From: an uncultured Rhodospirillaceae bacterium
Lineage (GTDB): Bacteria; Pseudomonadota; Alphaproteobacteria; GCA-2731375
DNA length: 64,000 nucleotides
Assembly (NCBI GenBank): GCA_964344935.1
Contig: CAYFPL010000013.1
Location: forward strand, 27,625 to 91,624
Direction: 5' to 3'
Made by a program: the position numbers and the translations under genes. The stretch's first letter is position 1; every line of letters begins with the position of its first letter. Below, one piece after another: positions 4,277-40,643 of the stretch. The notes beneath the pieces were generated by a model. The model was not told where the DNA came from and made no database searches. It saw only the letters and a list, made by a program, of their open reading frames with translations.

Positions 4277-5704
4277 ATGACCAGCCATGCCGCCAACGGC
4301 CTCACGGGCGCCGATATCCGCGCCAAATTGCAGCATCCGGTGGTGGATGCAGACGGCCATATGATCGAATGCACTTTCGCGGTGCTGGATTTTGTGCGCC
4401 AGGTGGGCGGCCCTGAACTGGCCAAACGCTATGAGGATATGCTGGCGGGCGATCAGACCGGGGCCGGGCGGCGCGCGGTCTGGGTCGGTAATTCCGGGCC
4501 CGGCTCCATCGATCGGGCCACAGCCATGCTGCCGAAGCTCTACCGCGCCCGCCTGGACGAGGCCGGTATCGATTTCGGCGTGGTTTACGGCACTCTGGCG
4601 TTAAGCGTGTTGCGTCTTGATGACGACGAATTGCGGCCCGTGGTCTACCGCGCCATGAACATGCTGTATGCGGATATGTTCCAGGAGGTCGGCGACCGTC
4701 TCACACCTGCTGCCCTGATCCCCATGACCGACCCAAAGGAAGCGGTCGCGGAACTGGACTTCGCGGTGGGCGAGCTGGGCCTCAAGGTCATCGTGGTCAA
4801 CACCATGCTGCAGCGCCCGGCGCCGGAAGTGGCCGAAGCCGTGCCGCATCTGGCGCATCTGAGTTTGGATCTGACCTCTCCCGGTATCGACGTGGGCGAT
4901 GCTTACGATCCGGTCTGGGCCAAGTGCGTGGAACTGGGCGTCGCACCCAGCTGCCACAACGCCTTCCGGGGGCGGGGTTCCACCCACGGCTCGCCCCGGA
5001 ACTATTGCTACAACTCGTTGAACAGTTTCGGCCATGGCAGCGAATTTTTCTGCCGCTCTCTGTTCTTCGGCGGTGTGCCTCACCGCTTTCCCGACCTGAA
5101 GTTTTGCTTCCTGGAGGGGGGCGCCGGCTGGGCGGCGCAGCTCTATAACAGCCTGTTCGAATATTGGGAGAAGCGGAACCTGGGCGCCCTGAGCCAAAAC
5201 CTGGACCCGGCCCGCCTGGACATCGACCTGCTGGTGGAGATGGCGGAGAGGTATGGCGATGCGCGCCTGACACCGGAACGCATCCGGGCCCAGCCGCACC
5301 AGCCGGGCACGACGCAGCTGTTCGTGCCGCCGGACGAACTGGATGATTTCGCCGGCACCGGCATCACCGGCGGCGAAGACATCCGCCGCATCTTCGATGA
5401 CAACTTCTATTTCGGCTCGGAAGCCGACGACCGCATGACCGCCGTCGCCTTCGATACCCGACTGAACCACCATGGCGCCAAGCTGAACGCCATTCTGGGG
5501 TCCGATATCGGCCATTGGGACGTGCCCGATATGACCAAGGTGATGGTGGAGGCTTACGAAATGCTCGATGACGGCTTTCTGGACGAGGCCGACTTTCGCG
5601 ATTTCACCTTCGCCAACGTCAGCCGTATGCATACCGGCATGAATAGGGATTTCTTCAAGGGCACGGTGGTCGACGGCGCGGTGGAAGATCTTTTGGCCGA
5701 ATAG
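4277..5704 (+). CDS. Amidohydrolase-2 (ACMSD-like metal-dependent hydrolase) family protein
   Basis: VVDADGHMIE N-terminal metal-binding motif and overall TIM-barrel amidohydrolase_2 pattern. It sits 15 nt after the aminotransferase. Confidence 0.65.
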   Translation: MTSHAANGLTGADIRAKLQHPVVDADGHMIECTFAVLDFVRQVGGPELAKRYEDMLAGDQTGAGRRAVWVGNSGPGSIDRATAMLPKLYRARLDEAGIDFGVVYGTLALSVLRLDDDELRPVVYRAMNMLYADMFQEVGDRLTPAALIPMTDPKEAVAELDFAVGELGLKVIVVNTMLQRPAPEVAEAVPHLAHLSLDLTSPGIDVGDAYDPVWAKCVELGVAPSCHNAFRGRGSTHGSPRNYCYNSLNSFGHGSEFFCRSLFFGGVPHRFPDLKFCFLEGGAGWAAQLYNSLFEYWEKRNLGALSQNLDPARLDIDLLVEMAERYGDARLTPERIRAQPHQPGTTQLFVPPDELDDFAGTGITGGEDIRRIFDDNFYFGSEADDRMTAVAFDTRLNHHGAKLNAILGSDIGHWDVPDMTKVMVEAYEMLDDGFLDEADFRDFTFANVSRMHTGMNRDFFKGTVVDGAVEDLLAE

Positions 5705-5712
5705 ACGAGCTC

Positions 5713-6642
5713 TCAGGGAACGATCAGGGTCGGCGGCAGACGCCAAAGCCGTTCGGCGTTCTTATGGGCGATGGCCTCGGCCACCGCCAGGGGCATATGT
5801 GCCAATGCGCGGCGCCAGTGCCGGGCCTGGGCCACGTAGAAGCCGCCCCAATGCTCTGGAAACACATTGTCGAAGGCCAGGATGAAACGGTCCGGATGAT
5901 CGGCCATCACCTTCGCCCAGGCCGGCTTTAGGCGCTCGCCGTCGAACAGGTTGGCCCAGGGCTGCCGGGAGCGGGCCACGGTAATGGGATTGCTGTGGGA
6001 GGTGAGGAAATGCAGATTGCGATGGGCTTCCAACAGGGCCCGGGCCTCGACCGGATCGTCGATCTGGCCCATATGGATCAAGGCCATGGGGTGGCCGGGG
6101 TGGCGCTCGAGCAGCGCTTTCATTTTGGCCATGAAGGGTGCCCGGTCGTCGCCGGCGGCGGCGAACTCGATATGCAGGATAAAGGGCCAGCGATGTTCCA
6201 TGGCCGCATCCAGATAAACCCCGACTTTTGCATGGTCGGGCGCGATGACGAATTTCCCGGCCTTGTTGCCCTTTTGCGCATGCCAAAGAATGACTTCCGC
6301 CAGGGCGCCATAGCTGCCTGCTGCGATTTCCTTGCCCACGAACCGGCGAAAGAAAGCGATGCCCTTGCGGCCCCTGAAATAAGCTTTGGTCTTGGTCCGC
6401 ACGGTTGCAGTGATGCGATCGGGATGGGCTCGGGCCAGAGCCAGGATATCCGCCGGCGCCCGGCGGAAGCGCGGCGATAGCAAAACCCGGCCGATGCCGG
6501 CCCGGTTCATGGTGCGGATCACCAGGTCCATATCCGTATCGCCGTCGATCTGGCTATGGGCATCGAGCAGAGGCAATTCCGCCGCCCAGACAAGTCTTGA
6601 TGCTAAAAGCAGCAGCAGGAGAGCGAGAGCAGCAGCTTTCAT
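5713..6642 (-). CDS. Amidohydrolase-family protein with N-terminal signal peptide
   Basis: MKAAALALLLLLLASRLVWAAE signal peptide, then LLDAHSQID and a metal-dependent hydrolase pattern. Confidence 0.55.
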   Translation of the reverse strand: MKAAALALLLLLLASRLVWAAELPLLDAHSQIDGDTDMDLVIRTMNRAGIGRVLLSPRFRRAPADILALARAHPDRITATVRTKTKAYFRGRKGIAFFRRFVGKEIAAGSYGALAEVILWHAQKGNKAGKFVIAPDHAKVGVYLDAAMEHRWPFILHIEFAAAGDDRAPFMAKMKALLERHPGHPMALIHMGQIDDPVEARALLEAHRNLHFLTSHSNPITVARSRQPWANLFDGERLKPAWAKVMADHPDRFILAFDNVFPEHWGGFYVAQARHWRRALAHMPLAVAEAIAHKNAERLWRLPPTLIVP

Positions 6643-6648
6643 GTGGCC

Positions 6649-8103
6649 TCAGTCCGGCCAGCCGCCGCGGGCATCCTGCAACAATTCGAACTCCAGGTTC
6701 GTGCGCGGGCCATAGGTCAGATGGCTCGGCTCCGGTGCCTCAAGGTATGCCGTCTTCAGGCGGCCGACCGGGTCCAGGCCGGCCTTGCGCTTGATCTCGG
6801 CCGGATCGACGCCATAGACGGCGGCGCCGTTGAGGCCGAACACTTTGGCCTTCAACGTCTCATCCAGAGCGGGGTAGCCGTGGCGTTCCTGAAGTTGTTC
6901 GGATATCTCGAAGGCGCGGAAAGCCTGGATCTGATCTTGGGGGGAGCCGTACCAGATGGAATCCGTACCCCATAGCAGCCGGTCGTGGCCGACATATTTC
7001 AACAGCTTGCCCAGGGTATGGGCCGCCGCCGTCGGATCCCGCATCAGGATGCGCCAGGTACTGCCCAGTTCCGCATAGACATTGGCGTTGGGGGCAATGC
7101 CGTTATCAGCCAGGCTTTTGATCAGGGTGTTGACGCCGCGTTGGGCGTTGTCGGGGTCGTAGGCGCCTTCCCGGGTGTCGGTCTCCAGCCCGGAATGATA
7201 GATGATGAAATTGACGTCCGGGAACCGCCGCGCCGCCGGGCCCACATCCGTGCAGTCGCTGAATTTTGGCGAGAAGCGCGGAAAGGTCAGGCCCTTGTGG
7301 ATGCAGATGTTGCGGATGCCCAGGGTCCGGGCCTTTTCGATGAACGGGATGCCCACCTCTTCGTCGTCCAGGCGCCAGCCGATGCCCCGGGGCCCCCATT
7401 GGGTATAGACCTTCCAGGCCGCGATCTGCCAGGTGGCGGCGGCCTGTTCCATGCCGCGCAGCTGTTCCCCCAGCGGCGGCAGGTTGGGCAGCACGACCGC
7501 ATGCAGCAACAAACGCCGGCCATCGCCCAGGGCCGCCACCAGGTCCCGCGTGCGGGCCGCCTCCGCCATGCTCAGCGGATTGCGGTCGGGCGGTGCGGGA
7601 ATGAAGCTCATCACCGCCATGTCCGTGTCGCTGTTGTGGAACACTTCATGCACGTAGTGGGCCGCGGAGTAGCAGTCCACCGGGTCGCTCTCGCCGCAGG
7701 ATCCCTGGGGCCACCAGGCCAGCACCCGCTCGAAGCCCGGGTTCCTTTGCCGCCAGCCGCCCTGCGGTTCCACCATGTGGGTCTGCACATCGAAGATGAA
7801 CTCATCCCCCGAAAGGGCGGCCTGCGCCGCCTCGCCGTCGAGGGCGGCATCCTTGGGCAGGATGAAACGCCCGCCCTGATTGCCCTTGGCGGCAAAGGCG
7901 GTATTGAACGCCGCCAATGTCGTGGCCGCGCCACACAAACCGTTCAGAAAGGCGCGGCGGGGGATGCCGGATTTCCTGGCATTGTCGGTCAGCAGCTCCT
8001 GGGCCAGAGCGTGGGCCTTGCGCAAATGTGCCGGCACCGGGATGGGCCGGTATTCACCGTTGGAGGTGCTGTCGATCTTGATGGGCAGGCGGCCTTGGCG
8101 CAT
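6649..8103 (-). CDS. Tat-exported amidohydrolase-family protein
   Basis: Twin-arginine motif RRAFLNGLCGAATTLAAF, then FIFDVQTHMVEP and an amidohydrolase_2-like body. Confidence 0.55.
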   Translation of the reverse strand: MRQGRLPIKIDSTSNGEYRPIPVPAHLRKAHALAQELLTDNARKSGIPRRAFLNGLCGAATTLAAFNTAFAAKGNQGGRFILPKDAALDGEAAQAALSGDEFIFDVQTHMVEPQGGWRQRNPGFERVLAWWPQGSCGESDPVDCYSAAHYVHEVFHNSDTDMAVMSFIPAPPDRNPLSMAEAARTRDLVAALGDGRRLLLHAVVLPNLPPLGEQLRGMEQAAATWQIAAWKVYTQWGPRGIGWRLDDEEVGIPFIEKARTLGIRNICIHKGLTFPRFSPKFSDCTDVGPAARRFPDVNFIIYHSGLETDTREGAYDPDNAQRGVNTLIKSLADNGIAPNANVYAELGSTWRILMRDPTAAAHTLGKLLKYVGHDRLLWGTDSIWYGSPQDQIQAFRAFEISEQLQERHGYPALDETLKAKVFGLNGAAVYGVDPAEIKRKAGLDPVGRLKTAYLEAPEPSHLTYGPRTNLEFELLQDARGGWPD

Positions 8104-28182: not shown

Positions 28183-29952
28183 TTGCAGCGCGAGAATCGT
28201 AGACTGGCCGCCGTCGTTTCGGCTGATGTCGCTGGCTACAGCCGGCTCATGGGGCTTGATGAAACGGGTACGTTGCAGCGCCTGAAGGCGCACCGCGCCG
28301 AGTTGATCGATGATATGATCGGCCGGCACGGTGGCCGAATCGTCAAGACGACAGGTGATGGCCTATTGTCGGAGTTCCCCAGCGTCGTCGCCGCCGTCGA
28401 GTGCTGCCTCTCCGTGCAAGCGGGCATGGCCGAGCGTAATGCGGGTATCCCCGACAACGAGGCGATCCGCTTTCGCATCGGCGTGCATCTGGGCGACATC
28501 ATTGTTGATGGTGATGACATCTTCGGTGATGGTGTAAACATCGCGGCGCGCTTGCAGGAGATCGGCGAGGCAGGTGGTGTGACCGTGTCGGCGGTCGTAC
28601 ATGACTATCTGGATGAAGCCACCGCTGCCCGTTTCGTGGATCTGGGCGAACGGGAGTTAAAGAACATCCGTCGTGCGGTTCGAACCTGGCAATGGCGCCT
28701 GGCCGAAGCATCGCCCGTCAGCAGCGTTGATGTGTCGCAACAAGTAGCGGGTTTTGATGGCAGGCCCGCCATTGCGGTGCTGCCATTCGAGAACATGTCG
28801 GGCGATCCGGAACAGGAATACTTCGCCGATGGGATTGCCGACGACATCCTGACACGTCTTTCGATGTGGCGGTTGCTGCCTGTCATAGCGCGAAACTCAA
28901 GTTTCATTTTCAAGGGACGCAACGTCGACATTAAGGAAGTCGGCGAATTGCTGGGCGCGCGTTACGTGCTTGAAGGCAGCGTGCGCAGGGCCGGCGATCG
29001 ACTACGGATCTCGGCGCAACTCATCGATGCAGAAAGTAGCCATCACCTCTGGGCTGATCGCTTCGATGGGGCGGTCGATGATGTCTTCGAATTTCAGGAC
29101 GAGATCACCGATCTCGTGGTTGCCGCGCTGGAAGCTGTTGTCGGCAACGCGGAGCGGCAACGGGCTCGCAAACAAAATCCGAAAAACCTCGGTGCCTGGG
29201 AGCTCTGTCATCGCGGCTGCTGGCATTTGAACCGATTAAATAGGGATGACATTGTCGCCGCAGAGAAGTTGCTACAACAGGCCATCGATATAGAGCCGGA
29301 TTTCGGATACGCGCTCGGCCAATTGGCCCTGGCTAGTGTCTATAAGGTGTTTTTCGGCTGGACCGATGATGTCACCGCCGAACTGGAACTGGCCAAGGTG
29401 AAAGCTCAACAGGCACGGTCCGCAGACGAACTGGAACCGATTAGCCATACCATCCTGTCGTTTGTTCATATGTTTGCGGGCGAACACGCGGCTGCGCGCG
29501 TGGCGGCGCAAAAGGCCATCGACCTCAATCCCAGTCTGCCAATGGCTTACCATGCCATGGGCGCCGCTGTCGGTCTTGATGGAGATCCGGATGGCGGTAT
29601 CGAGCTGTTTATGCAGGGCCAAAGGCTTAGCCCGGACGATCCAAATGCACAATTCCGCCTTGGCGGCATCGCCGGACTGCATATCGCGGCAGGGCGCTAC
29701 GAACAGGCGCTGGAATATGCCGAGCGGGTAACCCAGATGGCGCCGGGCTTTCCCGTTGGGCATCTCAGAAAGGCCGTCGCCTTGGCCGAGTTGGGGCGCG
29801 GCGAGGACGCCGAAGCGGCGCTGGGGGAGTACTTGCGATTCTCGCCGAAGGCAACCGTTCAGTCGGCCCTGACGACGCTTCGGCTCAGTCGTGCCGAGGA
29901 TGTCGCGCGCTACGCCAATTCCCTGCGCAAGGCCGGCCTGCCCGAACAGTAG
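28183..29952 (+). CDS. Cyclase-TolB-like-TPR paralog 3
   Basis: RRLAAVVSADVAGYSRLMGLDETGT...VLPFENMSGDPEQEYFADG plus the TPR tail. TTG start. Confidence 0.8.
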   Translation: MQRENRRLAAVVSADVAGYSRLMGLDETGTLQRLKAHRAELIDDMIGRHGGRIVKTTGDGLLSEFPSVVAAVECCLSVQAGMAERNAGIPDNEAIRFRIGVHLGDIIVDGDDIFGDGVNIAARLQEIGEAGGVTVSAVVHDYLDEATAARFVDLGERELKNIRRAVRTWQWRLAEASPVSSVDVSQQVAGFDGRPAIAVLPFENMSGDPEQEYFADGIADDILTRLSMWRLLPVIARNSSFIFKGRNVDIKEVGELLGARYVLEGSVRRAGDRLRISAQLIDAESSHHLWADRFDGAVDDVFEFQDEITDLVVAALEAVVGNAERQRARKQNPKNLGAWELCHRGCWHLNRLNRDDIVAAEKLLQQAIDIEPDFGYALGQLALASVYKVFFGWTDDVTAELELAKVKAQQARSADELEPISHTILSFVHMFAGEHAAARVAAQKAIDLNPSLPMAYHAMGAAVGLDGDPDGGIELFMQGQRLSPDDPNAQFRLGGIAGLHIAAGRYEQALEYAERVTQMAPGFPVGHLRKAVALAELGRGEDAEAALGEYLRFSPKATVQSALTTLRLSRAEDVARYANSLRKAGLPEQ

Positions 29953-30232: not shown

Positions 30233-31039
30233 CTACGCCGGCTTTGATGCGGTGAACGCTGCGTAGGCCATGTAACCGAAGAACGCACCCTGTTGCGCCC
30301 GCCAACGCCCCTCCGCCTTCAGGGCCTCGGCGAAATTTTCACTGATCCGGCCCTGTGCCGCCAAGGCGTCGGCACCCCGATCGATCCACGTCATGGTCAG
30401 CGCAGGCGATAAGGTTTCGACCAGGCCATAGCTTTTCAGCGGCGATACGACGAAGCCGACGTCCTGAGCCAGGGCGGTCATCCTTCGGACCAACCACTTG
30501 TCATTGACAAAGTTGTCCACGAACGCGGCCGTGCAGGCTTCCAATGGGTCGCCATCGCCGGTTTGCAGTGTCGCGGTGGAGAAATCGCCATCGCACACCC
30601 CGAGATAGCCACCGGGTTTCAGCACGCGATAGGCTTCGGCCAGATAGTCTTCGGGGCCTGGAACGTGGGTGAGCAGGGTGTGCAGAACGACGGCATCGAA
30701 TGTGCCATCGGGAAACCGCAAAGCCTTGCCGTCGCCAACCTCGTAGGTGATTCCGTCTTCATCTGCCGATAGCGACCGCGCCTTATCGATAAACACCTCA
30801 GACGGGTCAATGCCCGTTATGTTGCCTCCATTGACGATTTCGGCCAACACACGGCAGATCGGCCCCGTTCCGCATCCGACTTCCAAAACGCTCGCGCCAT
30901 CGGACAATGGAATGTCCGAAAGATAGTCCCTTGTCATTTCCTGTTGCGAGGGAATTGCGGCGCGGGTCTCCAGAACATTGGCGATGACCTCGAGCATTTC
31001 ATCCGGCGCATTGGTGATGCTGGCAAATATGTCAGGCAT
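30233..31039 (-). CDS. Class I SAM-dependent methyltransferase
   Basis: VLEVGCGTG motif I and VLKPGGYL post-I motif. The start was moved to the internal ATG. Confidence 0.7.
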   Translation of the reverse strand: MPDIFASITNAPDEMLEVIANVLETRAAIPSQQEMTRDYLSDIPLSDGASVLEVGCGTGPICRVLAEIVNGGNITGIDPSEVFIDKARSLSADEDGITYEVGDGKALRFPDGTFDAVVLHTLLTHVPGPEDYLAEAYRVLKPGGYLGVCDGDFSTATLQTGDGDPLEACTAAFVDNFVNDKWLVRRMTALAQDVGFVVSPLKSYGLVETLSPALTMTWIDRGADALAAQGRISENFAEALKAEGRWRAQQGAFFGYMAYAAFTASKPA

Positions 31040-31404
31040 GACATGACCTCCATCCGCTTGTCGGCCGCAAACCGACCATTCTGACGCCAAGCCTATCCGC
31101 TTGCGTCCGCCATTGTCGAACCGTCTGTCCTTGGTGGCGAAAGCTGAAAGAGCCGCTCGCGCGTCATTGCGTAAAGAGGCAGGTTGCGGACGATATGACG
31201 TCCTGGTAGCGCTGAAGTGTGAATTTCAAGGGACGCTTTTGCGTGTCGAAATCCGGAAACAACCATATTCGGTTCGTGGCGGCGCCACTAGGGTAGGCGG
31301 ATCCGAGCAACCTCCTTCCTTCGACAGGCTGGTTTGTTTGTGCGGCCCGGTCTATCTATTTTGAGCGGACATAAGCCATCAGAATGCGATTGGAGAACGC
31401 CGTT

Positions 31405-32409
31405 ATGCGTTTTGCGATTATCGGCTATCGAAACCATGCGGCCCGCCTTCGGGGTCTGTTGGCCGACATAGAAGCGGTATCCGAAATTATCGTATTCCAT
31501 CCCGACAGCGACCGCCTCCGGGACCTGGAAGCCGACAGCGCTCATGCGGCGATCACGGCGACGTCGGATTTCGACCAATTGCGGGATTGTGCCGGCGTTC
31601 TGATCAGTTCGCCCAGCGATAGCCATCGCCAATATATTGAACAGCTCCTGCGCTTGGGCGACATGGCCATCTTTTGCGAGAAGCCCATTGCAACGACGCC
31701 GGAAGACCTCAATTGGCTGCGCAAACTGCCTACCACGGCCAAGAGAAGACTCTTCTGCAATCAAAGCTATGCCCACAACGCGTTCAGCCGCCAAGCGGCC
31801 GAACTGATCGAAAGCGGCCGGGCCGGACAGCCGCGGCATCTGGAAATCAATGCCACCCATGGCCTCGCCTTCAATCCGTCATTTGAGGGCAATTGGCGGT
31901 TTCGAACCCGGGATCCCTTCGCCTCGATTGTCGGCAACCTCGGCGTCCACTATGTCTATCTCGTGCTGCGCCTGTTTGGCGAACCGGACCGCATCATCTG
32001 TCACAAATCTCGCGGCAATCCCAACAGCGTCGATGCCGATACCTGCGCGATATTGATGACGCTGCCCGCGGGACAATCGGTTTCGATCTATGTGTCCTAT
32101 GCCACGCCTTTTACCAACACCGCGCGATTGCTGTTCACGGATGGCATTCTGCACCTGGACGATGGCTGCTTGCGCCTCTATTCGCCGAGGGACAGCTTTG
32201 ATGCCGATGGCCGATATGCCACGCCGCCCCATGAGGAGATCTGCCGCTTTGACTCCTACAAGGCCTTCGCCGATCAATCATTGCAGCGCGCATTGCGCGA
32301 CTTCGTCGCTGGTCTCGATGACGACACGGGCTATTCCGAAGAAGCCTTCGCCATGGCCATCAGGAGCGCGGAACTGGTGCTGCAGATGTACGGCGATGAG
32401 CCAACTTGA
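31405..32409 (+). CDS. Gfo/Idh/MocA-family oxidoreductase
   Basis: MRFAIIGYRNHA N-terminal Rossmann motif and the EKP motif FCEKPIAT. Confidence 0.75.
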   Translation: MRFAIIGYRNHAARLRGLLADIEAVSEIIVFHPDSDRLRDLEADSAHAAITATSDFDQLRDCAGVLISSPSDSHRQYIEQLLRLGDMAIFCEKPIATTPEDLNWLRKLPTTAKRRLFCNQSYAHNAFSRQAAELIESGRAGQPRHLEINATHGLAFNPSFEGNWRFRTRDPFASIVGNLGVHYVYLVLRLFGEPDRIICHKSRGNPNSVDADTCAILMTLPAGQSVSIYVSYATPFTNTARLLFTDGILHLDDGCLRLYSPRDSFDADGRYATPPHEEICRFDSYKAFADQSLQRALRDFVAGLDDDTGYSEEAFAMAIRSAELVLQMYGDEPT

Positions 32410-32565
32410 ATGCGGGTTGTAGGAGCCGTCACAGCCGGTTGGACAATGAACCATCCTAGCTTTGCGGATGAACATATGCATGGGCGTTTCGCTCGCTGTC
32501 ATTGACATAATATTGCGGCTGTGCAACCGTTTTTTTGAGGGCATGACATTATCCGGAGATTGAAG

Positions 32566-32853
32566 ATGTTGACAAAGATGGTTTTGCCAGCAGCGGCATT
32601 GGTAATGGGTTTTGCTATCGGATCGGTTCAGGCGGCAGAAAAATTTTCCGTGCTGGATGATGTATCCGCCCAGGCGTTGACGCAAAAACAGATGGCTCAA
32701 GTCGAAGGCATGGGAGGTAAACTTGTGGTTGTGCCGCTCGCGGCGAAAAATGGCGCTCATAATTCCACTAACAAACGCGGAAATCACCTAATTGCGACTG
32801 GTAAGGGGGGCTGCCCAGGTCAAGGCTGTGGCGTGCTAAGAAAACGTAGATAG
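32566..32853 (+). CDS. Small exported peptide (95 aa) with Sec signal peptide and an internal double-glycine motif
   Basis: A GGAG RBS sits 7 nt upstream of the ATG. The signal peptide is MLTKMVLPAAALVMGFAIGSVQA|AE. Then ...ALTQKQMAQVEGMGG|KLVVVPL... and a Cys-containing basic C-terminus CPGQGCGVLRKRR. Confidence 0.4.
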   Translation: MLTKMVLPAAALVMGFAIGSVQAAEKFSVLDDVSAQALTQKQMAQVEGMGGKLVVVPLAAKNGAHNSTNKRGNHLIATGKGGCPGQGCGVLRKRR

Positions 32854-33090
32854 GCCTTAAACAAAACTTGGCGCAATAGAACTGAAGTTTGGTATTTGGC
32901 TCATGCATTGAGTCATTCCCGCTATCGCAAATAACCTGATTGGGACGTTGGTAAAGGTATTGGCGGGGAGACAGTAGGAAACGTTCTCGCGGCTGCGCTT
33001 TGATTAGCGCGGCCGCTATTTTTCGGGGTGGGAAAGACCGTGCCTTGGTGCCACCATGGTTGCTCTCTATACTTCCGCGCTAATACGAAA

Positions 33091-33843
33091 ATGGCTTTCG
33101 GTCTCACCATGAATAGCCTTGTCCGTCGGATTTGGATGCGTTCCGTGCTCCACTTGGCGCTCACGTTGATGTTTGCTGTGACGCCGTACCAGGCGATAGC
33201 GACCACCGTGGAAATCGGGTCAGGGCTGCGGGTTCATGTTCCCTTGAAATCATGGCGAGCCCTGCGGGACGAGAACCTCGTCATCCAGCGCTTTGACTAT
33301 TCTTGCGGGTCCGCCGCGTTGGCAACCCTTATGCGCTATGCCCATGGCCGCACGGTCGGCGAGAAGGCGATCCTGGATACGGTCTTTCAAACGCTGCCGC
33401 GCCAAGACAGGCGTGCGCGAAAGGAGAAAGGCTTGTCCCTTTTGGACCTGCAGCGCGCGGCCGAACATTACGGTTTCCATGCCCAGGGGTTCAAGCTGCG
33501 GGCGGATCAATTGCCCAAGCTCAAGGGTCCGGTCATCGTCTTCATCAGTCCCGGCGGCTACGATCATTTCGCCGTGCTGCGCGGCGTGCGCGGCGGACGG
33601 GTCTACCTGGCGGATCCATCGTCGGGTAACGTCCGAATGCCCGCCTACCGGTTCCTCGAAAGTTGGTTGGGCAGCGATGGCAAGGGCATAATTTTTGCCA
33701 TTCAGCGCAAGGATCCTCGCAGCGATCAACCAACCAAACTCAAGCCCTTGGGCGATGGCTTGGCGCAGCCGGAAATCCTGGCAGCGCGGCAAATGCTGGC
33801 GGTCGGCAACCTGCTCACCCGCATGCCCGCGTTACGACGCTAA
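33091..33843 (+). CDS. Peptidase C39-like domain protein, stand-alone, with signal peptide (predicted periplasmic)
   Basis: QRFDYSCGSAALATLMRYAHG matches the C39 Q...C-G-x-A-A-L active-site region. Downstream HFAVLRG provides a candidate catalytic His. N-terminal hydrophobic leader. Confidence 0.6.
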   Translation: MAFGLTMNSLVRRIWMRSVLHLALTLMFAVTPYQAIATTVEIGSGLRVHVPLKSWRALRDENLVIQRFDYSCGSAALATLMRYAHGRTVGEKAILDTVFQTLPRQDRRARKEKGLSLLDLQRAAEHYGFHAQGFKLRADQLPKLKGPVIVFISPGGYDHFAVLRGVRGGRVYLADPSSGNVRMPAYRFLESWLGSDGKGIIFAIQRKDPRSDQPTKLKPLGDGLAQPEILAARQMLAVGNLLTRMPALRR

Positions 33844-33858
33844 TGGCATGTTGACGAC

Positions 33859-35187
33859 ATGAAGCGCGGCCCGAACAAACGCGCGCGTACCTGTTCTGGC
33901 GTCTTCATGGCGGCGGTATTGTGCACGCAATTGTTGTGGGGCACTCCCGTCTTTGCCGGGCAGAAGGGCGTGCGGCCAGAGGTACTTACGCTTGCCGAGA
34001 CGGCGGCGTTCCTGCGTGTGTCGGAAAACGAAATCGTAAGACTGGCCAGCTTGCGTCAACTGCCGGCCCGTAAAATTGGTGGTCAGTGGCGCTTTAGCCG
34101 GAGGGCTTTGCTGGGCTGGCTTGCCGGCAAGCCCATTTCAAGTGATGCCGGCGAAATCGAACGGCAAACCGTTGCAACGGCCCGTCCTGGCTATCCCCCG
34201 TTGTTGCCTCCCGGTTACCGCCAGCCAGTTGTCGGAGGGCGCAACAGGGAACAAATCGGCCAGGGGGCGCTGTTGACGAGTTCGCCTCAACTGGCACCCA
34301 TGGCCATGGCACAAATCAAAGGCCGTGGCACGGACGTGGCACAGGCCGCGCCGGCTTCGCGCGCACCGCCAAGCCAACCGATCGGCGAAGCCTCCAATGT
34401 AGAAACGGCAGATGACATATTTCTGCGCGATCAACGTGTGCTACTTGGTGCCGACGAAGTCACACTGGAATTCGGGCAGTTCTATGCCCACCGGGATGAA
34501 CCGACATTGACGCTGGTGGCCGGTGGCGTCGGGCTAGGGAGCCTTGAGACCGACACGTTCATCACCCAGATGGCTGCACGCTATGGGCTAACACCAAACG
34601 TCGAACTGTTCGCGAGCGTCCCGTTCTCGCACCGCACCACCAAGGTTTTCATTGGCAATTTAAAAACCAGCGAGACTGACGTTACTGAATTCGGGACAAT
34701 CAGTCTGGGCGCACGGGGGACCGTGTTGCGCGAGGGCACGGGGGTGCCGGAAATTGTGCTTACCCTACAATCCGGCATTCCGACGGGAGAGGCGTCCTAT
34801 TCCCTTGGCGGCGGCATGGCGCTGATCAAGAGCTACGACCCAGCCATTCTTTTCGCCGGTCTGAACTACACACATACCTTCAGTCGTGATTTTTCCGATG
34901 TAACCCGGCTGGAGCCGGAAGACACGGTCGATGGGTCCTTGGGATTTGCATTTGCCCTTAACGAAACATTGCTATTGAGCACTTCACTTTCGGGGATTAT
35001 CTCGGCGGCAACAGATTTCCCCGCGGCGAAATTGCGGCAGAGTGAATCCTTCAGCCTAAAGTTCGGACTGACCACACAATTGCTTCCGGGCCTCTACATC
35101 GAACCGACGGCGAGTTTCGGACTCGACGGTCCCGGCAATAGCTTCGTCCTTGGCGTCAGCGTCCCCTACAGCTTTCCCGTCAAATAG
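33859..35187 (+). CDS. Signal-peptide protein fusing an excisionase-family HTH (HTH_17-like) to a C-terminal outer-membrane beta-barrel-like domain
   Basis: LTLAETAAFLRVSENEIVRLASLRQLPARKIGGQWRFSRRALLGWL matches the HTH_17 consensus. The C-terminal ~250 aa have alternating hydrophobic beta-strand character and end in YSFPVK, typical of OM barrels. Confidence 0.5.
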   Translation: MKRGPNKRARTCSGVFMAAVLCTQLLWGTPVFAGQKGVRPEVLTLAETAAFLRVSENEIVRLASLRQLPARKIGGQWRFSRRALLGWLAGKPISSDAGEIERQTVATARPGYPPLLPPGYRQPVVGGRNREQIGQGALLTSSPQLAPMAMAQIKGRGTDVAQAAPASRAPPSQPIGEASNVETADDIFLRDQRVLLGADEVTLEFGQFYAHRDEPTLTLVAGGVGLGSLETDTFITQMAARYGLTPNVELFASVPFSHRTTKVFIGNLKTSETDVTEFGTISLGARGTVLREGTGVPEIVLTLQSGIPTGEASYSLGGGMALIKSYDPAILFAGLNYTHTFSRDFSDVTRLEPEDTVDGSLGFAFALNETLLLSTSLSGIISAATDFPAAKLRQSESFSLKFGLTTQLLPGLYIEPTASFGLDGPGNSFVLGVSVPYSFPVK

Positions 35188-35382
35188 CCCTCGTCACTAT
35201 TCGGGTTCTCGGGCAGACGTCAGCAGATATCGAACCCACGCCCGCTCCGGCGGACGATCATTGTGTTGACCGGGGGAAGCTCGGTTAAAGCCTCCTTAAT
35301 CCTATCGATTTACCATTCCAAGTCATTGCGATTGACGCCTGAGCCGAACGCGCCGAACAACGGGGACACCGCCTTTGCCATG

Positions 35383-36639
35383 AGCAGCGATGTGCAAGAT
35401 CAGTATGAGGCCTATCCCTATCCGCTGCGTGATCCGGAGACCGAAGATCCACACGCGCACATCGACGTGACGCCCGGCCATCTTTTCGAAGTGAACCAGT
35501 TCGTCTTTGACGGCGGGCTTGGCGCCGGGCGCCCATTCCGTGCCCTGTATGCAGGCGGCGGCACGGGCGATGGCACCTTGTTGGCGGCCATTCAGGCGAT
35601 TGCCATGGGTCTGCCCGGCGAAGTCGTGCATCTAGACATATCCGCCGCCTCTATCGCCATCGCCAGGCAGCGGGCCGAGCTGCGGGGGCTGGACAACATA
35701 CGATTTGTCCAGGGTTCGCTTCTGGATGTGGAGGATATGGGGCTCGGCACCTTCGACTATATCGATTGCTCCGGTGTGCTGCATCACCTGGCCGATCCCG
35801 ATGCCGGCCTGCGCTCCTTGTGCGGCGTCCTGGCGGCGGGCGGCGGCATTGGTCTGCTGCTCTATGGCGAATATGGCCGCACCGGGCTTTATCACATTCA
35901 ACATGGGCTGCGTATCCTGAACAAGGCACTGCCGGCGCCGCAGGCGATCGAACGGGCCCGGCGCTTCATCGCCGGATTGCCGCCGACCGCCTGGGCCAAC
36001 CGCAATCCACAGCTTGCCGGCGATCATGCCAACCTTGACGACACCGAGTTCTACGACCGCTATCTGCACAGCCAGGACCGGGCCTATACGGTGGGGCAAC
36101 TCTATGAAATGGCCAGGGGGTGCGGCCTCGAGGTGACCGCACTGGTTACGCCGGGGCGCTACGACCCCCTGTCCTATCTGCCGGACGAGGAGCTTGCCGA
36201 ACAGGCGAAAATGCTGTCGCCGGCACAGGCGGCGGAATTGGCGGAGCTGATGGACGGCGAGATGGCGATGCACTCGTTTTATCTGCGGCCCCGCAGAGAT
36301 GTGCCGCAGTCACCCATTGGGCCAGGATTGGCAGAGGCCATTCCCGCGCTGCGCCACCAGGATGGGGCCGAGTTGGCCGTCAAGCTGCCGCTCGGCACGG
36401 CGCTGTCAAGAAACTACGGCGGCCGCGAGATCAACTTCGAAATGCTGGCCACCTCATCCGCCATCATTGCGCTGATCGACGGCCGGCGTAACCTTCGCGA
36501 AATTCACGCTGCCCTAGTGGACAAATTCCCCGGGTTGACCTGGCCAGCCTTCATGCAGGATTTCGCCTATCTGTATGAAGTGTTGCACCGGCATATGTTC
36601 CAGCTATTCCTGAGTCGCGTGCCGGTCGGCGGCAGCTAG
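35383..36639 (+). CDS. Class I SAM-dependent methyltransferase with C-terminal extension
   Basis: LYAGGGTGDGTL motif I and VHLDIS. The start is uncertain; the ORF opens at 35263. Confidence 0.65.
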   Translation, partial: SSDVQDQYEAYPYPLRDPETEDPHAHIDVTPGHLFEVNQFVFDGGLGAGRPFRALYAGGGTGDGTLLAAIQAIAMGLPGEVVHLDISAASIAIARQRAELRGLDNIRFVQGSLLDVEDMGLGTFDYIDCSGVLHHLADPDAGLRSLCGVLAAGGGIGLLLYGEYGRTGLYHIQHGLRILNKALPAPQAIERARRFIAGLPPTAWANRNPQLAGDHANLDDTEFYDRYLHSQDRAYTVGQLYEMARGCGLEVTALVTPGRYDPLSYLPDEELAEQAKMLSPAQAAELAELMDGEMAMHSFYLRPRRDVPQSPIGPGLAEAIPALRHQDGAELAVKLPLGTALSRNYGGREINFEMLATSSAIIALIDGRRNLREIHAALVDKFPGLTWPAFMQDFAYLYEVLHRHMFQLFLSRVPVGGS

Positions 36640-36827
36640 CCGCCCCACCGGTCGTCCGGCAGGCGTCATCTTTCGACCAATGTCTGCGTTGGAGCAATGC
36701 CGGCCTTTCGATATCATTTGCCGCCACTTCCGGCGTCGATACCGGGAAACGTCGTACCGCCGGAAATCAACCGTTCATGGACAAGCGCAACATGGACGTG
36801 TCTTAATTGGCCGATTGAGGCCAATAA

Positions 36828-37217
36828 TTGGCGGAAGCCGCAATGCTTTCTGAAGTTCGGTATGACAAGGCGGACAATGTCGTACGAGTGACGATTTCGG
36901 AGGACCTTACGCAAAAAGATTTCCGGGATGCGTTGCGGAAAATTACGGCATCTGTGGACCATCCACCCAACGTGAATGTCATTTGGGACCTGCAAAACGT
37001 AAATTTTTTCAATGTCGACATTCAGCTGTTATCAAAGTTGAAGGACGTAAGGGATGAGTACGCGGCAATGCGAAACGCGTCGCGTGCGGCCATTCTTGTT
37101 CCCGGTTTCATCGAAGGGTCTTTGATGAAGATGTTTAGTGACATTGCGAACACACCTTCCGGACACATCAAAATTGTCACAACCCCCGCCGATGCCGAAG
37201 GCTGGTGTGTCGGTTGA
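36828..37217 (+). CDS. STAS/SpoIIAA-like domain protein (putative anti-sigma-factor antagonist fold)
   Basis: Pattern VRVTISEDLT...VNVIWDLQNVNFFNVDIQLLSKL resembles STAS. This is a weak call. Confidence 0.4.
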   Translation: MAEAAMLSEVRYDKADNVVRVTISEDLTQKDFRDALRKITASVDHPPNVNVIWDLQNVNFFNVDIQLLSKLKDVRDEYAAMRNASRAAILVPGFIEGSLMKMFSDIANTPSGHIKIVTTPADAEGWCVG

Positions 37218-37402
37218 GCTAACGTTGCCGACCGTTGCGAACAATCGATTGGTTCGCATCGTGGCTATCAATTCACAAAAATGCACACCTTGAGATTTGG
37301 CAGCAACTACCTTTGGGCTTGCCGGTCCTAGAGGCGTTCAAAGGAGATCTCGCGAATTCCGATAGAAACGGCGCCGCCTTCATTCAGTTCGTCCCTGTAT
37401 CT

Positions 37403-37849
37403 CTAATCATACGATGGGGAAATGGGTCCAGCGTGGAATTCGGATTCATCAATGGCGTATTGCACGCCGACAAAGTTGTCGATCTCTCCGTTATCGGAGA
37501 CGATTGGACGTATGCTGAGGCGATTAAGGAAAGGCGTGCCGTCCTTCTTGTAGTTCAGGATGTCGACGGTGATCGCCTTGCCGCTCTCAATGGCTGTGCG
37601 GATCGCGCCGACAGTGGCGGGATCGGTGTCCTCGCCCTGAAGGAACCGACAGTTCCGACCCAGAATTTCATCGCGGCTGTAGCCCGTCAAATCGACGAAG
37701 GCGTCGTTCGCGAAAACGATTGGGTTGTCCGTTTGTCGCGGGTCGGTGATGAGAAACGACCTTTGGCGCTCCTCTTCGGTGATCCGTTCGTAGGCTTCAT
37801 CAAGAGACATCATCGGAACCGCACCCAGGGCAATTGGATAATGAAGCAA
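37403..37849 (-). CDS. Short LOV-domain (PAS) blue-light photoreceptor protein
   Basis: The GRNCRFLQG flavin-adduct cysteine motif is diagnostic of LOV domains. No effector domain is present. Confidence 0.8.
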
Positions 37850-37978
37850 ACGCCAAACACAACGCCATGTACTTAAGATTGCCCATTCTTTCCCGATTGT
37901 CCACGCTGGCGCGCCGGGCTTTGCCCCATAACTTCAAACATGAATTTGTCTAATGGTGATATCGTCGGAGCCTAACCC

Positions 37979-38773
37979 ATGGCCCCGCACGAGCAGGCGC
38001 GAATGAGGCAAGCAATGCAGGAAGATCAGGTTCGCATAATCGGCAGTCCCATCTCGCCCTATGTACGCAAGGTCCTGGCAGCTTGCGAACTGAAAGGCAT
38101 CGCGGTGGAGATCGATCCCATCGTGCCGTTTTTCGGTGACGATCGGTTCACGGAAATGAGCCCGTTGCGGCGGATTCCCGTTTTTGTGGATGGCGATGTC
38201 ACGTTGAGTGATTCCTCCGTGATTTGCCAATACATTGAAGACCGTTGGCCGGCAAATAGGCTTTACCCGGAAGACATTGCACAACGGGCCCGGGCCCGCT
38301 GGCTGGAGGAATATGCCGACACGCGGATCGGCGATGTCTTCATCTGGCGGCTCTTCAACAACGCCGTTATTTCACCTTCGGTGTTCGGCACAAAGCGGGA
38401 CGATGAATTGCGCAGCCATGCCATGGCGCACGAGGTCCCCCAAATCATGGACTACCTTGAGGCGGAGATGCCATCGGAAGGCTTCCTCTGCGGCGACCTG
38501 GGCATCGCCGATTTTGCCGTGGCGCCGTTCTTCGAGAACTTGACCTGGGCCCGTTGCGAGCCCGATTGGAAGCGTTGGCCGCGCACCGCCGCATGGCGCA
38601 CGCGCACGCTTGAGGCCAGCGCACTAGGACCGTTGGCATCCATCGGCGCGGAACTGGCACGCACACCCATCCCCCATCATCGTGACAAGCTGGCCAGCCT
38701 GGATATGCCGTTGACGGAAGACACCCTCATGGTTGCAACACCGCGCCGTGGCCCCATGACCGTCGCCATTTGA
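37979..38773 (+). CDS. Glutathione S-transferase family protein
   Basis: N-terminal thioredoxin-like SPISPYVRKV and RIPVFVDGDVTLSDSSVICQYI. C-terminal GST helices. Confidence 0.7.
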   Translation: MAPHEQARMRQAMQEDQVRIIGSPISPYVRKVLAACELKGIAVEIDPIVPFFGDDRFTEMSPLRRIPVFVDGDVTLSDSSVICQYIEDRWPANRLYPEDIAQRARARWLEEYADTRIGDVFIWRLFNNAVISPSVFGTKRDDELRSHAMAHEVPQIMDYLEAEMPSEGFLCGDLGIADFAVAPFFENLTWARCEPDWKRWPRTAAWRTRTLEASALGPLASIGAELARTPIPHHRDKLASLDMPLTEDTLMVATPRRGPMTVAI

Positions 38774-38849
38774 TTTTGTGCGGAAAGAGACGCTGCCTTC
38801 TCCTGATCTTGAATGGATTTGCCGGGGAGCGATCGCTAATATTCATGCC

Positions 38850-40643
38850 ATGACTGACGGCACCAAACGCAAGCTGGCGGCGATCGTAAGCGCCGACGTG
38901 TCCGGTTATTCGCGCATGATGCAAGTTGACGAAGCCGGCACGCACCGCCGTCTCAAGGCCCGCTACGACGAGCTTGTCGCTCCGCAAATCGAACAGAAGG
39001 GCGGCCGCATCGTCAAGCTCATGGGCGACGGTTTGCTGGCCGAATTTCCCAGCGTGGTCAGCGCCGCGGAATGCGCATTGGAAGTTCAAATCGCCGCAGC
39101 CGCCGCCGATGCGAATGTAGATCCAGGGCGGCGCATCGAATACCGCATCGGTATCCACCTCGGCGACGTGATCGTTGATGGCGACGATATCTATGGCGAT
39201 GGCGTCAATCTGGCCGCCCGCTTGCAGGAATCCGGGGATGTGGGCGGCATCTCCCTGTCCGACGATGCTTATCGTCAGGTGCGCGGCAAGGTTGATGCTG
39301 CGTTCGTCGATGGCGGCGCGGTGTCTCTCAAGAACATCTCCGGCGATGTCCGCGTCTGGCGCTGGACGCTCGGATATGATGACGAGTCACTTCGTGGCGA
39401 GGGCATCGAAGCGGCGATTGGACCAGCGGCAACCCAGCCTCTTGCCGATAAACCTTCCCTCGCCGTGCTGCCCTTTGACAACCTTTCCGGTGATCCGGAA
39501 CAGGAATATTTCGCAGACGGGATGACGGAAGATATCATTACCGGCCTGTCTCGGTTTCGGTCGTTGTACGTGATCGCCCGCAACTCCACCTTTGCCTACA
39601 AGGGAAATTCGCCGGACGTTCGCCAGGTCGCCCGCGACTTAGGTGTTCGTTATATTCTCGAAGGCAGCGTTCGCCGGGGTGGCCAACGCATTCGCATCAA
39701 TGCGCAACTTATCGATGCCGAGGCCGGTGGTCACCAATGGGCCGAGCGTTATGATCGGGAGTTGGCCGACATATTCGCGGTTCAAGACGAGGTTACGGAA
39801 GCGATCATCGCCGCCATCGCGCCCGAAATCGACCAGGCGGAGCGCAACCGCGCACAACGCAAGCCGCCGGAAAGCTTGGATGCCTGGAGTCTGTACCAAC
39901 GTGGTCTTGCCGCCTATCACGCAACGACCAAGGACGGCTTCGAAACCGCGATCCAATTGTTCGACAGGGTTAACGACCTTGATCCCGGCTTCGCGCCGGC
40001 CTTCGCCATGGGCGCCGATGCCCGTACGCGCCTGACCATCCATTACATGCCCGGCGATACATCGCTGCTGCGCCAGGCCCAGGACAAGGCCGGCGTGGCG
40101 ACGACCCTTGATGCAAACGACGCGGATTGCTTATGGGTCGACGGGAAAGTGCAAAGCTTCCTAGGCTATCACGACGCCGCGGTCGCTAGGGGACAGGAGG
40201 CCATCACCCTCAATCCGAATTCCGCCATGGCGCATCAGGCCTTTGGTCTGATCCTGCAACGTGCGGGCCGCTCCGACGAAGCCATACGCCATATCACCCA
40301 GGCCATAGATCTAAGCCCTCGCGATTTGTTCTTGCCCGGCTTCTTGGCGCTCGGATCAAAGGCCTTGTATGACATCGGCCGCTTTCAGGATGCACTGAAT
40401 TGGGCGGGCCGCGCCAACCGTAGTCGCAATCCGCGGCCGCTGTCGTTTATCGTCGCCGCCGCCGCGTTGAGCGAACTTGGCGATCGGGATGCGGCGGTGG
40501 CTGTAGTTGCCGAGATGCTTGATCTCACGGGCCTCAAATCGGCACCGGAGCTTCGTGAGCTTCTGTTTTGGAACTGCCCCATGAGCCAAGAACGGAACGA
40601 ACAAACCATGGAGGCGTTGCGTCAGGCTGGCTTGCCAGACTAG
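38850..40643 (+). CDS. Cyclase-TolB-like-TPR paralog 4
   Basis: RKLAAIVSADVSGYSRMMQVDEAGT...VLPFDNLSGDPEQEYFADG plus the TPR tail. The start was set at the ATG at 38850. Confidence 0.8.
   Translation: MTDGTKRKLAAIVSADVSGYSRMMQVDEAGTHRRLKARYDELVAPQIEQKGGRIVKLMGDGLLAEFPSVVSAAECALEVQIAAAAADANVDPGRRIEYRIGIHLGDVIVDGDDIYGDGVNLAARLQESGDVGGISLSDDAYRQVRGKVDAAFVDGGAVSLKNISGDVRVWRWTLGYDDESLRGEGIEAAIGPAATQPLADKPSLAVLPFDNLSGDPEQEYFADGMTEDIITGLSRFRSLYVIARNSTFAYKGNSPDVRQVARDLGVRYILEGSVRRGGQRIRINAQLIDAEAGGHQWAERYDRELADIFAVQDEVTEAIIAAIAPEIDQAERNRAQRKPPESLDAWSLYQRGLAAYHATTKDGFETAIQLFDRVNDLDPGFAPAFAMGADARTRLTIHYMPGDTSLLRQAQDKAGVATTLDANDADCLWVDGKVQSFLGYHDAAVARGQEAITLNPNSAMAHQAFGLILQRAGRSDEAIRHITQAIDLSPRDLFLPGFLALGSKALYDIGRFQDALNWAGRANRSRNPRPLSFIVAAAALSELGDRDAAVAVVAEMLDLTGLKSAPELRELLFWNCPMSQERNEQTMEALRQAGLPD

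Follow-up and report, generated by a model that had tools for sequence, protein, structure and literature searches.

A FapD/FapF-type gene cassette that probably secretes a small cationic peptide in two steps in an uncultured Rhodospirillaceae bacterium

Secretion systems that pair a periplasmic C39 peptidase with a FapF-type outer-membrane pore are already described, in the Fap system (2017) and in the Neisseria nap island (2025). FapD works in the periplasm, and its catalytic Cys is needed for FapF-dependent secretion, an arrangement that has been called a 'hybrid secretion system' (PMC5557850). The substrate of FapD was left open, and FapE lacking its N-terminal region was seen by mass spectrometry (Rouse et al. 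2017, PMC5557850). The nap island encodes the small cationic double-glycine (GG) peptides NapA, NapB and NapC together with the C39 peptidase NapP and the FapF homologue NapF (PLoS Biol 2025, PMC11798529). In the model proposed for it, the peptides are cut within the periplasm and exit through the pore, while the inner-membrane route was left open, with the holin-like NapH as a suggestion (PMC11798529). Here we analyse positions 32,566 to 36,639 of a 64,000-nucleotide stretch of DNA (the window) from an uncultured Rhodospirillaceae bacterium (GenBank assembly GCA_964344935.1, contig CAYFPL010000013.1). A preliminary description of this DNA, made from the letters alone, had placed four open reading frames (ORFs) here, for an exported 95-residue peptide, a C39-like peptidase, a protein with a helix-turn-helix (HTH) domain and a beta-barrel, and a methyltransferase, and the ORF list bears out all four. 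We propose that the first three of these genes form a two-step secretion cassette of the FapD/FapF type for a small cationic peptide, a reading that we hold with a probability of about 0.7. The preliminary description recognised no described system in this arrangement, which has to be corrected, as both FapD/FapF (PMC5557850) and the nap island (PMC11798529) resemble it; our literature search found no description of the cassette family beyond Fap and Nap. The locus is thus an unannotated variant of a known secretion route. Its novelty lies in the bipartite combination of a signal peptide with a GG-like leader, in an HTH_17 domain that the pore carries in the periplasm, and in how large and diverse the cargo family is.

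The second gene (33109..33843, forward strand) encodes a stand-alone, FapD-like periplasmic C39 cysteine peptidase of 244 residues, recognised through Pfam, NCBIfam and PDB matches. Its longest ORF begins at a GTG at 33028, which gives a range of 244-271 residues, and we favour the ATG at 33109 as the start since a terminator-like hairpin lies at 32989-33026. The product matches PF03412 (Peptidase_C39) with 70.5 bits against a cutoff of 22 (E 1.6e-19). Among NCBIfam models, it matches FapD (NF058616, E 4e-32) with 111.3 bits against an equivalog cutoff of 330, as a homologue and not an orthologue, and FilB (E 9e-26) with 91 bits against a cutoff of 475; its identity to FapD is 31-32%. Matches to PDB sequences are the peptidase domains of LahT150, PCAT1 and ComA. 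When residues are numbered from ATG 33109, Q60, H153 and D169 are invariant and C66 (codon at 33304-33306) is present in 12 of 13 family members, which include two Pseudomonas FapD sequences. C66 and H153 are the catalytic residues, Q60 the oxyanion Gln and D169 the Asp, and the Cys and His motifs align with dCG and aHF of PCAT1 and also with LahT150. The catalytic Cys and His, on which the preliminary description had made its proposal depend, are therefore both in place. Pfam and NCBIfam revealed no ABC-transporter domains in the protein, and its residues 1-31 form a signal-peptide-like segment (MNSLVRRIWMRSVLHLALTLMFAVTPYQAIA, followed by TT). This agrees with the earlier view of a C39-like peptidase with its own signal peptide and no ABC fusion, and for a peptidase with its own signal peptide, cleavage in the periplasm, unlike that by cytoplasmic-face C39 domains, is the best reading. 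The last residues, 220-244 (33766..33840), form a conserved C-terminal tail, QPEILAARQMLAVGNLLTRMPALRR. Peptidases of the family share the pattern QPEI..AREMLAVGN...R.P.L.R here, and the tail of FapD differs (..DAELM[DE]FGFIQSDFF). The tail is loosely leader-like and, judged from its sequence, could be an autoinhibitory or pore-docking element. As a side observation, at a related locus in an alphaproteobacterial metagenome-assembled genome (MAG), L017, the peptidase (5109-5876) has its catalytic Cys replaced by Tyr (DYSYG), and a frameshift near 6687 divides the barrel gene (6001-7103); the cassette copy there could be decaying, or the assembly could be in error.

The third gene (33859..35187, forward strand) encodes an outer-membrane channel protein of 442 residues, as indicated by profile comparison, an AlphaFold2 (AF2) model and Foldseek. 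The AF2 model (mean pLDDT 76, above 90 at residues 41-90 and in the barrel) shows a signal peptide, a compact HTH fold, a disordered linker and a beta-barrel. The signal-peptide-like segment covers residues 1-33 (MKRGPNKRARTCSGVFMAAVLCTQLLWGTPVFA, followed by G) and the HTH_17 fold residues 42-90 (33982..34128; HTH_17 E 1e-11). A disordered linker of about 95 residues (95-188) follows, overlapping a plug-like segment, residues 174-196 (34378..34446), that stands out by its conservation in the family, and the FapF-type barrel occupies residues 200-440 (34456..35178). A profile of 22 barrel relatives compared with FapF (5O65) gives E 1.9e-31 with nearly the whole barrel covered. The best 18 PDB matches of the AF2 model in Foldseek are all FapF (E 1.6e-16, target TM 0.70-0.73), and COG4313-type channels are more distant structural neighbours (4RL8, E 2e-8). 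NCBIfam scores are 67.6 bits against an equivalog cutoff of 700 for FapF (NF058560, E 8.5e-19) and 25 against 630 for FilC (E 1.4e-5), and identity to FapF is 22-27%. By profile and by predicted structure, then, the barrel is a FapF homologue. The signal peptide, the HTH domain and the C-terminal beta-barrel had all been named correctly in the preliminary description; membership of the barrel in PF13557 (Phenol_MetA_deg), the family that it named for a check, we rejected, as the match reaches 14.8 bits against a cutoff of 22 (E 0.031).

The barrel has to pass the inner membrane by way of Sec, which places its HTH_17 domain in the periplasm, where it cannot act on DNA. The HTH_17-barrel architecture occurs in about 60 family clusters at 33-52% identity. 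Some relatives (P0055-P0059, L014 and L015) have barrels with no HTH domain and retain both peptide and peptidase, so we regard the domain as accessory. Because of this N-terminal domain, the pore family is systematically misannotated: public JGI/NCBI records (P0007, P0010, P0027, P0054 and others), if they give its members a name, call them 'excisionase family DNA binding protein' or 'helix-turn-helix domain-containing protein'.

The first gene (32566..32853, forward strand) encodes the presumed cargo, a pre-pro-peptide of 95 residues, and is supported by the ORF list, a ribosome-binding site, a leader hidden Markov model (HMM) and synteny. A GGAG ribosome-binding site lies at 32555-32558, with the ATG 7 nt after it. 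The product begins with MLTKMVLPAAALVMGFAIGSVQA, then AEK, and includes QVEGMGGKLVVV and CPGQGCGVLRKRR. Residues 1-23 (32566..32634; MLTKMVLPAAALVMGFAIGSVQA, with A following) read as a Sec signal peptide with a basic n-region, a hydrophobic run and a VQA/A end, a layout that is identical in all family members. Residues 24-49 (32635..32712; AEKFSVLDDVSAQALTQKQMAQVEGM) form a pro-leader of the double-glycine type with a net charge of -2, its register taken from 184 leaders. The predicted mature core, residues 50-95 (GGKLVVVPLAAKNGAHNSTNKRGNHLIATGKGGCPGQGCGVLRKRR; 32713..32850), whose boundary follows from the leader register, has 46 residues, 4.65 kDa, a pI of 11.6, a net charge of +9 and two Cys (the CPGQGC pair); it is Gly-rich and free of Q/N-rich repeats. 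The Sec signal peptide and the two-Cys core with a basic tail that the preliminary description attributed to the product agree with this reading. An AF2 model of the peptide (pLDDT 53, one short helix at residues 40-47) was uninformative. When the window peptide and its relatives were scanned, no Pfam or NCBIfam model covered them; a match of the window peptide to DUF6520 (E 0.25) was rejected, being limited to the signal-peptide region and not repeated in relatives.

The cargo gene also differs from the machinery in composition and spacing. Its GC content is 51% (48% at third codon positions, GC3), and with its flanking intergenic regions it lies at 49-51% GC and 44-48% GC3, against 59-63% GC and 65-75% GC3 for the peptidase, barrel and methyltransferase genes. 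The preliminary description spoke of short gaps, which does not hold between cargo and peptidase genes: about 255 nt separate them and contain a terminator-like hairpin (32989..33026, forward strand) with an 11-bp stem, 9 G-C pairs and a T-rich tail. From its sequence, we infer that it is a partial terminator, by which transcript of the peptide would be made in excess over that of the machinery.

A scan of species-representative genomes yielded 18 close loci, with Pseudomonas fap operons as distant relatives. The close loci are MAGs of Alpha-, Beta- and Gammaproteobacteria, Vicinamibacterales and Nitrospiraceae. The C39 gene is directly upstream of the barrel gene in 16-17 of them, and a leader-only HMM finds a small leader-bearing gene adjoining the C39/barrel pair at 14 of 17 informative loci; none of the other ORFs among the 7345 tested scored E < 1e-3 with this model. 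The small ORF, whose possible absence from syntenic loci the preliminary description had singled out, is thus a regular part of them. In L003 and L013 the cargo gene is nearby on the other strand. Starting from the peptide instead, all four contigs with enough flank carry a C39 or barrel gene beside the peptide gene (4/4). All-against-all clustering of neighbouring ORFs brought up nothing conserved besides the upstream small ORFs. Three of the four genes therefore form a conserved cassette. One further locus, the metagenome contig L001, shares 99-100% protein identity with the window. Flanking repeats were short matches at chance level and gave no sign of a mobile unit. Megablast of 8 kb against a plasmid collection found nothing, and tblastn of the barrel against this collection returned only a distant FapF-like match from Aeromonas. 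An Rfam scan of 31000-38000 gave nothing at E <= 0.1.

A word-based search with the single peptide sequence retrieved only the peptide itself, and the cargo family emerged only after small ORFs of syntenic loci had been collected and searched as a profile. The small gene directly upstream of the peptidase in these loci encodes a signal peptide, a leader motif and then a variable region. This profile search found 58 clusters in a 90%-identity collection and 256 clusters at E <= 1e-3 among 1.84 billion 50%-identity representatives. The signal peptide and the leader are conserved across the family, with a conserved stretch of about 25 residues (F-[AST]-x-L-x-x-V-x-A-x-P-M/L-S/T-x-x-E/Q-L/M-x-x-V/I-K/E/R-G), and the cores are hypervariable, with a median length of 53 residues, net charges from -9 to +12 and exactly two Cys in 90 of 184. 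Many cores open with a beta-strand-like HIHF or HIYLLVE segment. Other alphaproteobacterial cores are basic too, that of L017 being Arg-rich and that of L003 beginning GWRWRWRVR. The L003 cargo gene (5713-6141, reverse strand) lies downstream of the barrel gene on the opposite strand, and its core, beginning GWRWRWRVRISNTPPPP, is Trp/Arg-rich and resembles an antimicrobial peptide. We also observed proteins with two to six tandem copies of the leader motif (P0195, of 727 residues, and P0177, P0184, P0192 and P0259), the repeat in P0195 being FATM.D[IL]P.DEL.G.EL.A[IV]; these could be poly-cargo precursors.

Leaders of this family share a common register. An invariant Gly is present in 180 of 184, with V/I two residues before it, L/M five before, E/Q six before and M/L ten before. 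This spacing of M/L, E/Q, L/M, V/I and G is the classical double-glycine register, as in substrates of PCAT and ComA. The invariant Gly was assigned to position -2 because of P0119 (L111 538-732, 64 residues), which carries the core of the largest cargo subfamily behind MRNLNQSELANVGGG (cut before AHIY), a classical N-terminal GG leader, and which aligns without gaps with a signal-peptide-type relative (SELANVGGG/AHIY and EQMAAVEGK/AHIY, respectively). P0119 has no signal peptide, and no in-frame hydrophobic segment lies upstream. By its sequence, P0119 is a natural leader swap between export routes; a Flp pilin gene lies just upstream of it, at 193-354 of L111. With the invariant Gly at -2, V/I fall at -4, L/M at -7, E/Q at -8 and M/L at -12, and in the window pro-leader these positions are taken by L38 (-12), Q42 (-8), M43 (-7), V46 (-4), G48 (-2) and M49 (-1). 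Position -1 varies in the family (K, L, Q, A, T, M or S).

The cut in the window peptide is accordingly predicted after M49 (VEGM/GGKL; G48-M49/G50). The preliminary description had seen a GG motif at a C39 site, and its view of a double-glycine-type leader stands, whereas its cut after G51 is not supported: the family's conserved glycine is G48 (in VEG) and not G50 or G51, 'GGK' aligns with core residues in other subfamilies, and a cut after G51 would set G at -4 and Q at -7, breaking a hydrophobic register that is invariant across the family. Curated bacteriocin and microcin leader models in NCBIfam and Pfam (e.g. TIGR01847) gave no match at E <= 1-10. A further small gene was noted in Methylococcales (L020 1891-2208), where a signal peptide precedes FHALAGLRGATPTPLDDEVLAATEGG, with AACS after the presumed cut, and the leader ends in a true GG; it lies behind the gene for a distant FapF-like barrel, in which an N-terminal coiled coil is present and the HTH domain is absent.

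A leader-like island also occurs in the linker of the barrel protein, L145-APMAMAQIKGRG-T158 (LAPMAMAQIKGRGT; 34291..34332). Its family consensus is L.{4}[ML]..[VIT].[GA].GT..AQ, and while the rest of the linker varies, L145 and G157 reach a conservation of at least 90%. The spacing L..M..I.G fits positions -12, -7, -4 and -2, and the island lies about 30 residues before the plug-like PIGEAP...FLRGQRVLL; natural HTH-less barrels start just after the island and just before the plug-like segment. The best score of the leader HMM on the linker was 7 bits, which is not significant, so the island is recognised from family conservation and spacing only. On that footing we consider it a candidate internal C39 site or pseudosubstrate. 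We also considered that FapD might have a site in FapF where the coiled coil ends, and dropped the idea, as Halopseudomonas has LRQLEGQ there but Pseudomonas VRQVEE.

The two homologies, the intact catalytic residues, the signal-peptide-like N-termini, the conserved triad and the double-glycine register were established in this analysis, and we infer cleavage, its exact site, transport and the role of the HTH domain. In the mechanism that we propose, Sec would export the 95-residue product and signal peptidase I would remove residues 1-23. The 26-residue pro-leader would then be read in the periplasm by the Sec-exported, FapD-like C39 peptidase, with a predicted cut after G48-M49. By analogy with FapF, the unfolded 46-residue core, with its charge of +9, would pass the outer membrane via the homologous 12-stranded barrel, and its two Cys may form a disulfide. 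The HTH_17 domain with the leader-like motif of the linker is probably an adaptor or pro-region, speculatively one that serves the peptidase as a dock or is cleaved off by it. The hairpin behind the peptide gene would supply cargo transcript in excess. Given its charge, our best guess is that the mature peptide is membrane-active, of an antimicrobial or autolysis type like the Nap peptides.

Several points weigh against this proposal. With 111 bits against 330 for the peptidase (FapD) and 68 against 700 for the barrel (FapF), both proteins fall far short of the equivalog cutoffs, so the transfer of function rests on distant homology. Position -1 is not Gly, unlike in known C39 substrates, which makes the exact cleavage site uncertain. 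The signal peptides of cargo, peptidase and barrel were judged by eye from sequence. The cassette has no adjacent leader-bearing gene in L002, L004 and L010, and the close relatives are all in MAGs or metagenomes. Moreover, no immunity-like gene is conserved around the cassette, and together with core charges from -9 to +12 this means that a common bioactivity is not implied.

One could doubt that the small gene is real at all, in which case the 95-codon ORF would be a chance or unexpressed frame and the C39/barrel pair would act on something unrelated. Its atypically low GC (51%) and the failure of the single-sequence search to find anything but the peptide itself would fit this idea. A leader HMM built without the window peptide, on the other hand, has its sole significant match among 988 window ORFs at 32539-32850 (E 5.2e-7), for which reason the ORF is more than a chance ORF; the ribosome-binding site is correctly spaced, and position and orientation are as in relatives, all of which makes this explanation extremely unlikely. 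We consider it very unlikely, too, that all four genes form a periplasmic locus similar to those of ribosomally synthesised, post-translationally modified peptides (RiPPs), in which the peptide would be tailored by the methyltransferase and cut by the C39 peptidase behind G50-G51, before K52. The four genes do lie on one strand, with only 76 nt between barrel and methyltransferase genes, the C-terminal part of the methyltransferase matches a PqqD/RRE-like model weakly (TIGR03859, E 0.003), and the peptide contains a literal GG. Co-occurrence speaks against it in both directions: the methyltransferase is found in 0/18 related cassette loci, being present only in the near-identical L001, and the C39, barrel and peptide genes are found in 0/63 metagenome loci encoding methyltransferase relatives (34-82% identity), whose conserved neighbours are housekeeping-type (SpoU/TrmH-like and RlmN-like). 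The cut that it requires also goes against the register, as described above. We therefore rejected a role for the methyltransferase as a tailoring enzyme in a RiPP cluster.

Two other explanations keep the three genes together and give the small protein a different part. It might be a surface-polymerising subunit or nucleator of a minimal fibre or amyloid biogenesis system like Fap or Fil, which would suit the nearest named families (FapD/FapF for amyloid, FilB/FilC for a putative pilus), the presence of the same leader type in FapE, a minor fibre component, and the beta-strand-like HIHF or HIYLLVE openings of many cores. We find this unlikely, since FapA, FapB or FapC-like repeat proteins are missing from the locus, as are usher and chaperone genes, the core of the window peptide (46 residues, Gly-rich, charge +9) lacks Q/N-rich repeats, and hypervariable cores are typical of diversifying secreted peptides and not of structural subunits. 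Alternatively, the small protein could have the accessory or priming role that has been proposed for FapE, or the channel itself could be the main C39 substrate, with cleavage in the linker maturing or opening the pore for cargo encoded elsewhere. The loci with no adjacent leader-bearing gene (L002, L004 and L010), the conserved island in the barrel linker and the natural HTH-less barrels that start just before the plug-like segment would all fit this, and Rouse et al. speculated that FapD cuts FapF (PMC5557850). Even so, the leader-bearing genes, in at least 256 clusters with hypervariable cores, behave like cargo, L014 and L015 retain peptide and peptidase beside HTH-less barrels, and the HMM score of the island is not significant, so that this alternative appears improbable as well.

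The fourth gene (35263..36639, forward strand) encodes a class I S-adenosylmethionine (SAM) methyltransferase according to Pfam. This part of the preliminary description is upheld, and its link to the other three genes is not: since methyltransferase and cassette do not co-occur in either direction (0/18 and 0/63 loci), the enzyme is an unrelated neighbour outside the system. Its PqqD/RRE-like match covers residues 396-424 and reaches 17 bits against a cutoff of 46, and its start may be the ATG at 35380 (MSSDVQDQYEAYPYP). The neighbours of the cassette in the window are oxidoreductase, methyltransferase, SpoIIAA-like, PAS and GST genes. Near the methyltransferase are a SpoIIAA-like (STAS) gene (36828-37217) and a gene for a short PAS/LOV-type protein (37403-37849, reverse strand), and two paralogous adenylate/guanylate cyclase-TPR genes (28183-29952 and 38778-40643) flank the region. 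The GC content of the window is about 64% at 1-14 kb and 55-60% in the remainder.

In textbooks, double-glycine leaders serve ABC exporters as signals for cleavage at the cytoplasmic face. Here such a register stands behind a Sec signal peptide in at least 256 clusters, with a FapF-type pore and a C39 peptidase free in the periplasm as neighbours, which suggests that small peptides have a second outer-membrane route, one independent of ATP. In Pseudomonas fap loci L021-L039 (e.g. L027 5114-5854), every FapE has a signal peptide and then F[KQ]PIE[LV]KD.EL[AS].LRG[RK][YF]VMPGR, with L at -4 and -7, E at -8 and G at -2, as in the cargo family. Because FapE shares this leader register, we suggest that FapE is a FapD substrate, cut after LRG[RK]. 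It is tempting to go further, to a general, widespread and as yet unannotated two-step pathway for small hypervariable peptides in diderm bacteria. The FapF-like pore would be coupled to a FapD-like C39 peptidase that is free in the periplasm and reads there a bipartite Sec and double-glycine-type tag; a leader mimic and a repurposed periplasmic HTH pro-domain, to which the peptidase docks or which it removes, would belong to the pore, and FapE, cut after LRG[RK], would be the FapD substrate. To this wider and tentative proposal we give somewhat less than even odds. The three-gene cassette offers a minimal test system for how FapF-type pores select and move unfolded substrates, and the cargo family supplies a candidate recognition motif for FapD, the substrate of which was left open in 2017. 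The family is also a pool of unexplored secreted peptides, many with a Cys pair and some strongly cationic, and the analysis exposes an annotation error in pore proteins labelled as DNA-binding proteins or excisionases.

Compared with the Fap system, the window locus has the same Sec-exported, stand-alone C39 peptidase with a catalytic Cys beside a homologous 12-stranded barrel, which is preceded by a plug-like segment. In both systems the substrates arrive by Sec, and FapE likewise combines a signal peptide with a GG-like leader. Unlike Fap, the window locus lacks the FapA/FapB/FapC amyloid genes and its cargo is a 46-residue cationic peptide, and its pore has a periplasmic HTH_17 domain where FapF, a trimeric pore, has an N-terminal coiled coil. 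Since the amyloid genes are missing and the scores fall below the equivalog cutoffs, the locus is not a Fap system. Acinetobacter Fil (FilB, FilC; NF050078, NF050079), on which our literature search found no paper, also pairs a stand-alone C39 peptidase with a FapF-like barrel, but the window proteins score far below its cutoffs (91 vs 475 and 25 vs 630) and the locus has no pilin, usher or chaperone genes.

PCATs (PCAT1, ComA, LahT, CvaB) share the C39 fold, the catalytic residues and the leader register with the window system, and P0119 has a classical GG leader. In PCATs, however, the peptidase is fused to an ABC exporter and works at the cytoplasmic face, and the leader is N-terminal, has no signal peptide and ends in Gly, Ala or Ser at -1. 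The window system, by contrast, has a peptidase free in the periplasm, a leader placed behind a Sec signal peptide and a variable position -1, and it contains no ABC transporter. The absence of an ABC transporter means that this is not a PCAT system, and the peptide is not a canonical GG-leader bacteriocin because a signal peptide precedes its leader and a residue other than Gly stands at -1. The nap island, compared through its description in PMC11798529, brings the same three components together, and the window cassette would work in the manner of Fap and Nap; in the nap island, too, the peptide genes are lower in GC than the machinery genes (napP, napF). On the other hand, the nap island has regulator, immunity-like and holin-like genes where the window cassette consists of only three genes, no signal peptide is described for the Nap peptides where the window peptides have an obvious Sec signal peptide before the leader, and the HTH_17 domain of the window pore sets it apart from the nap island.

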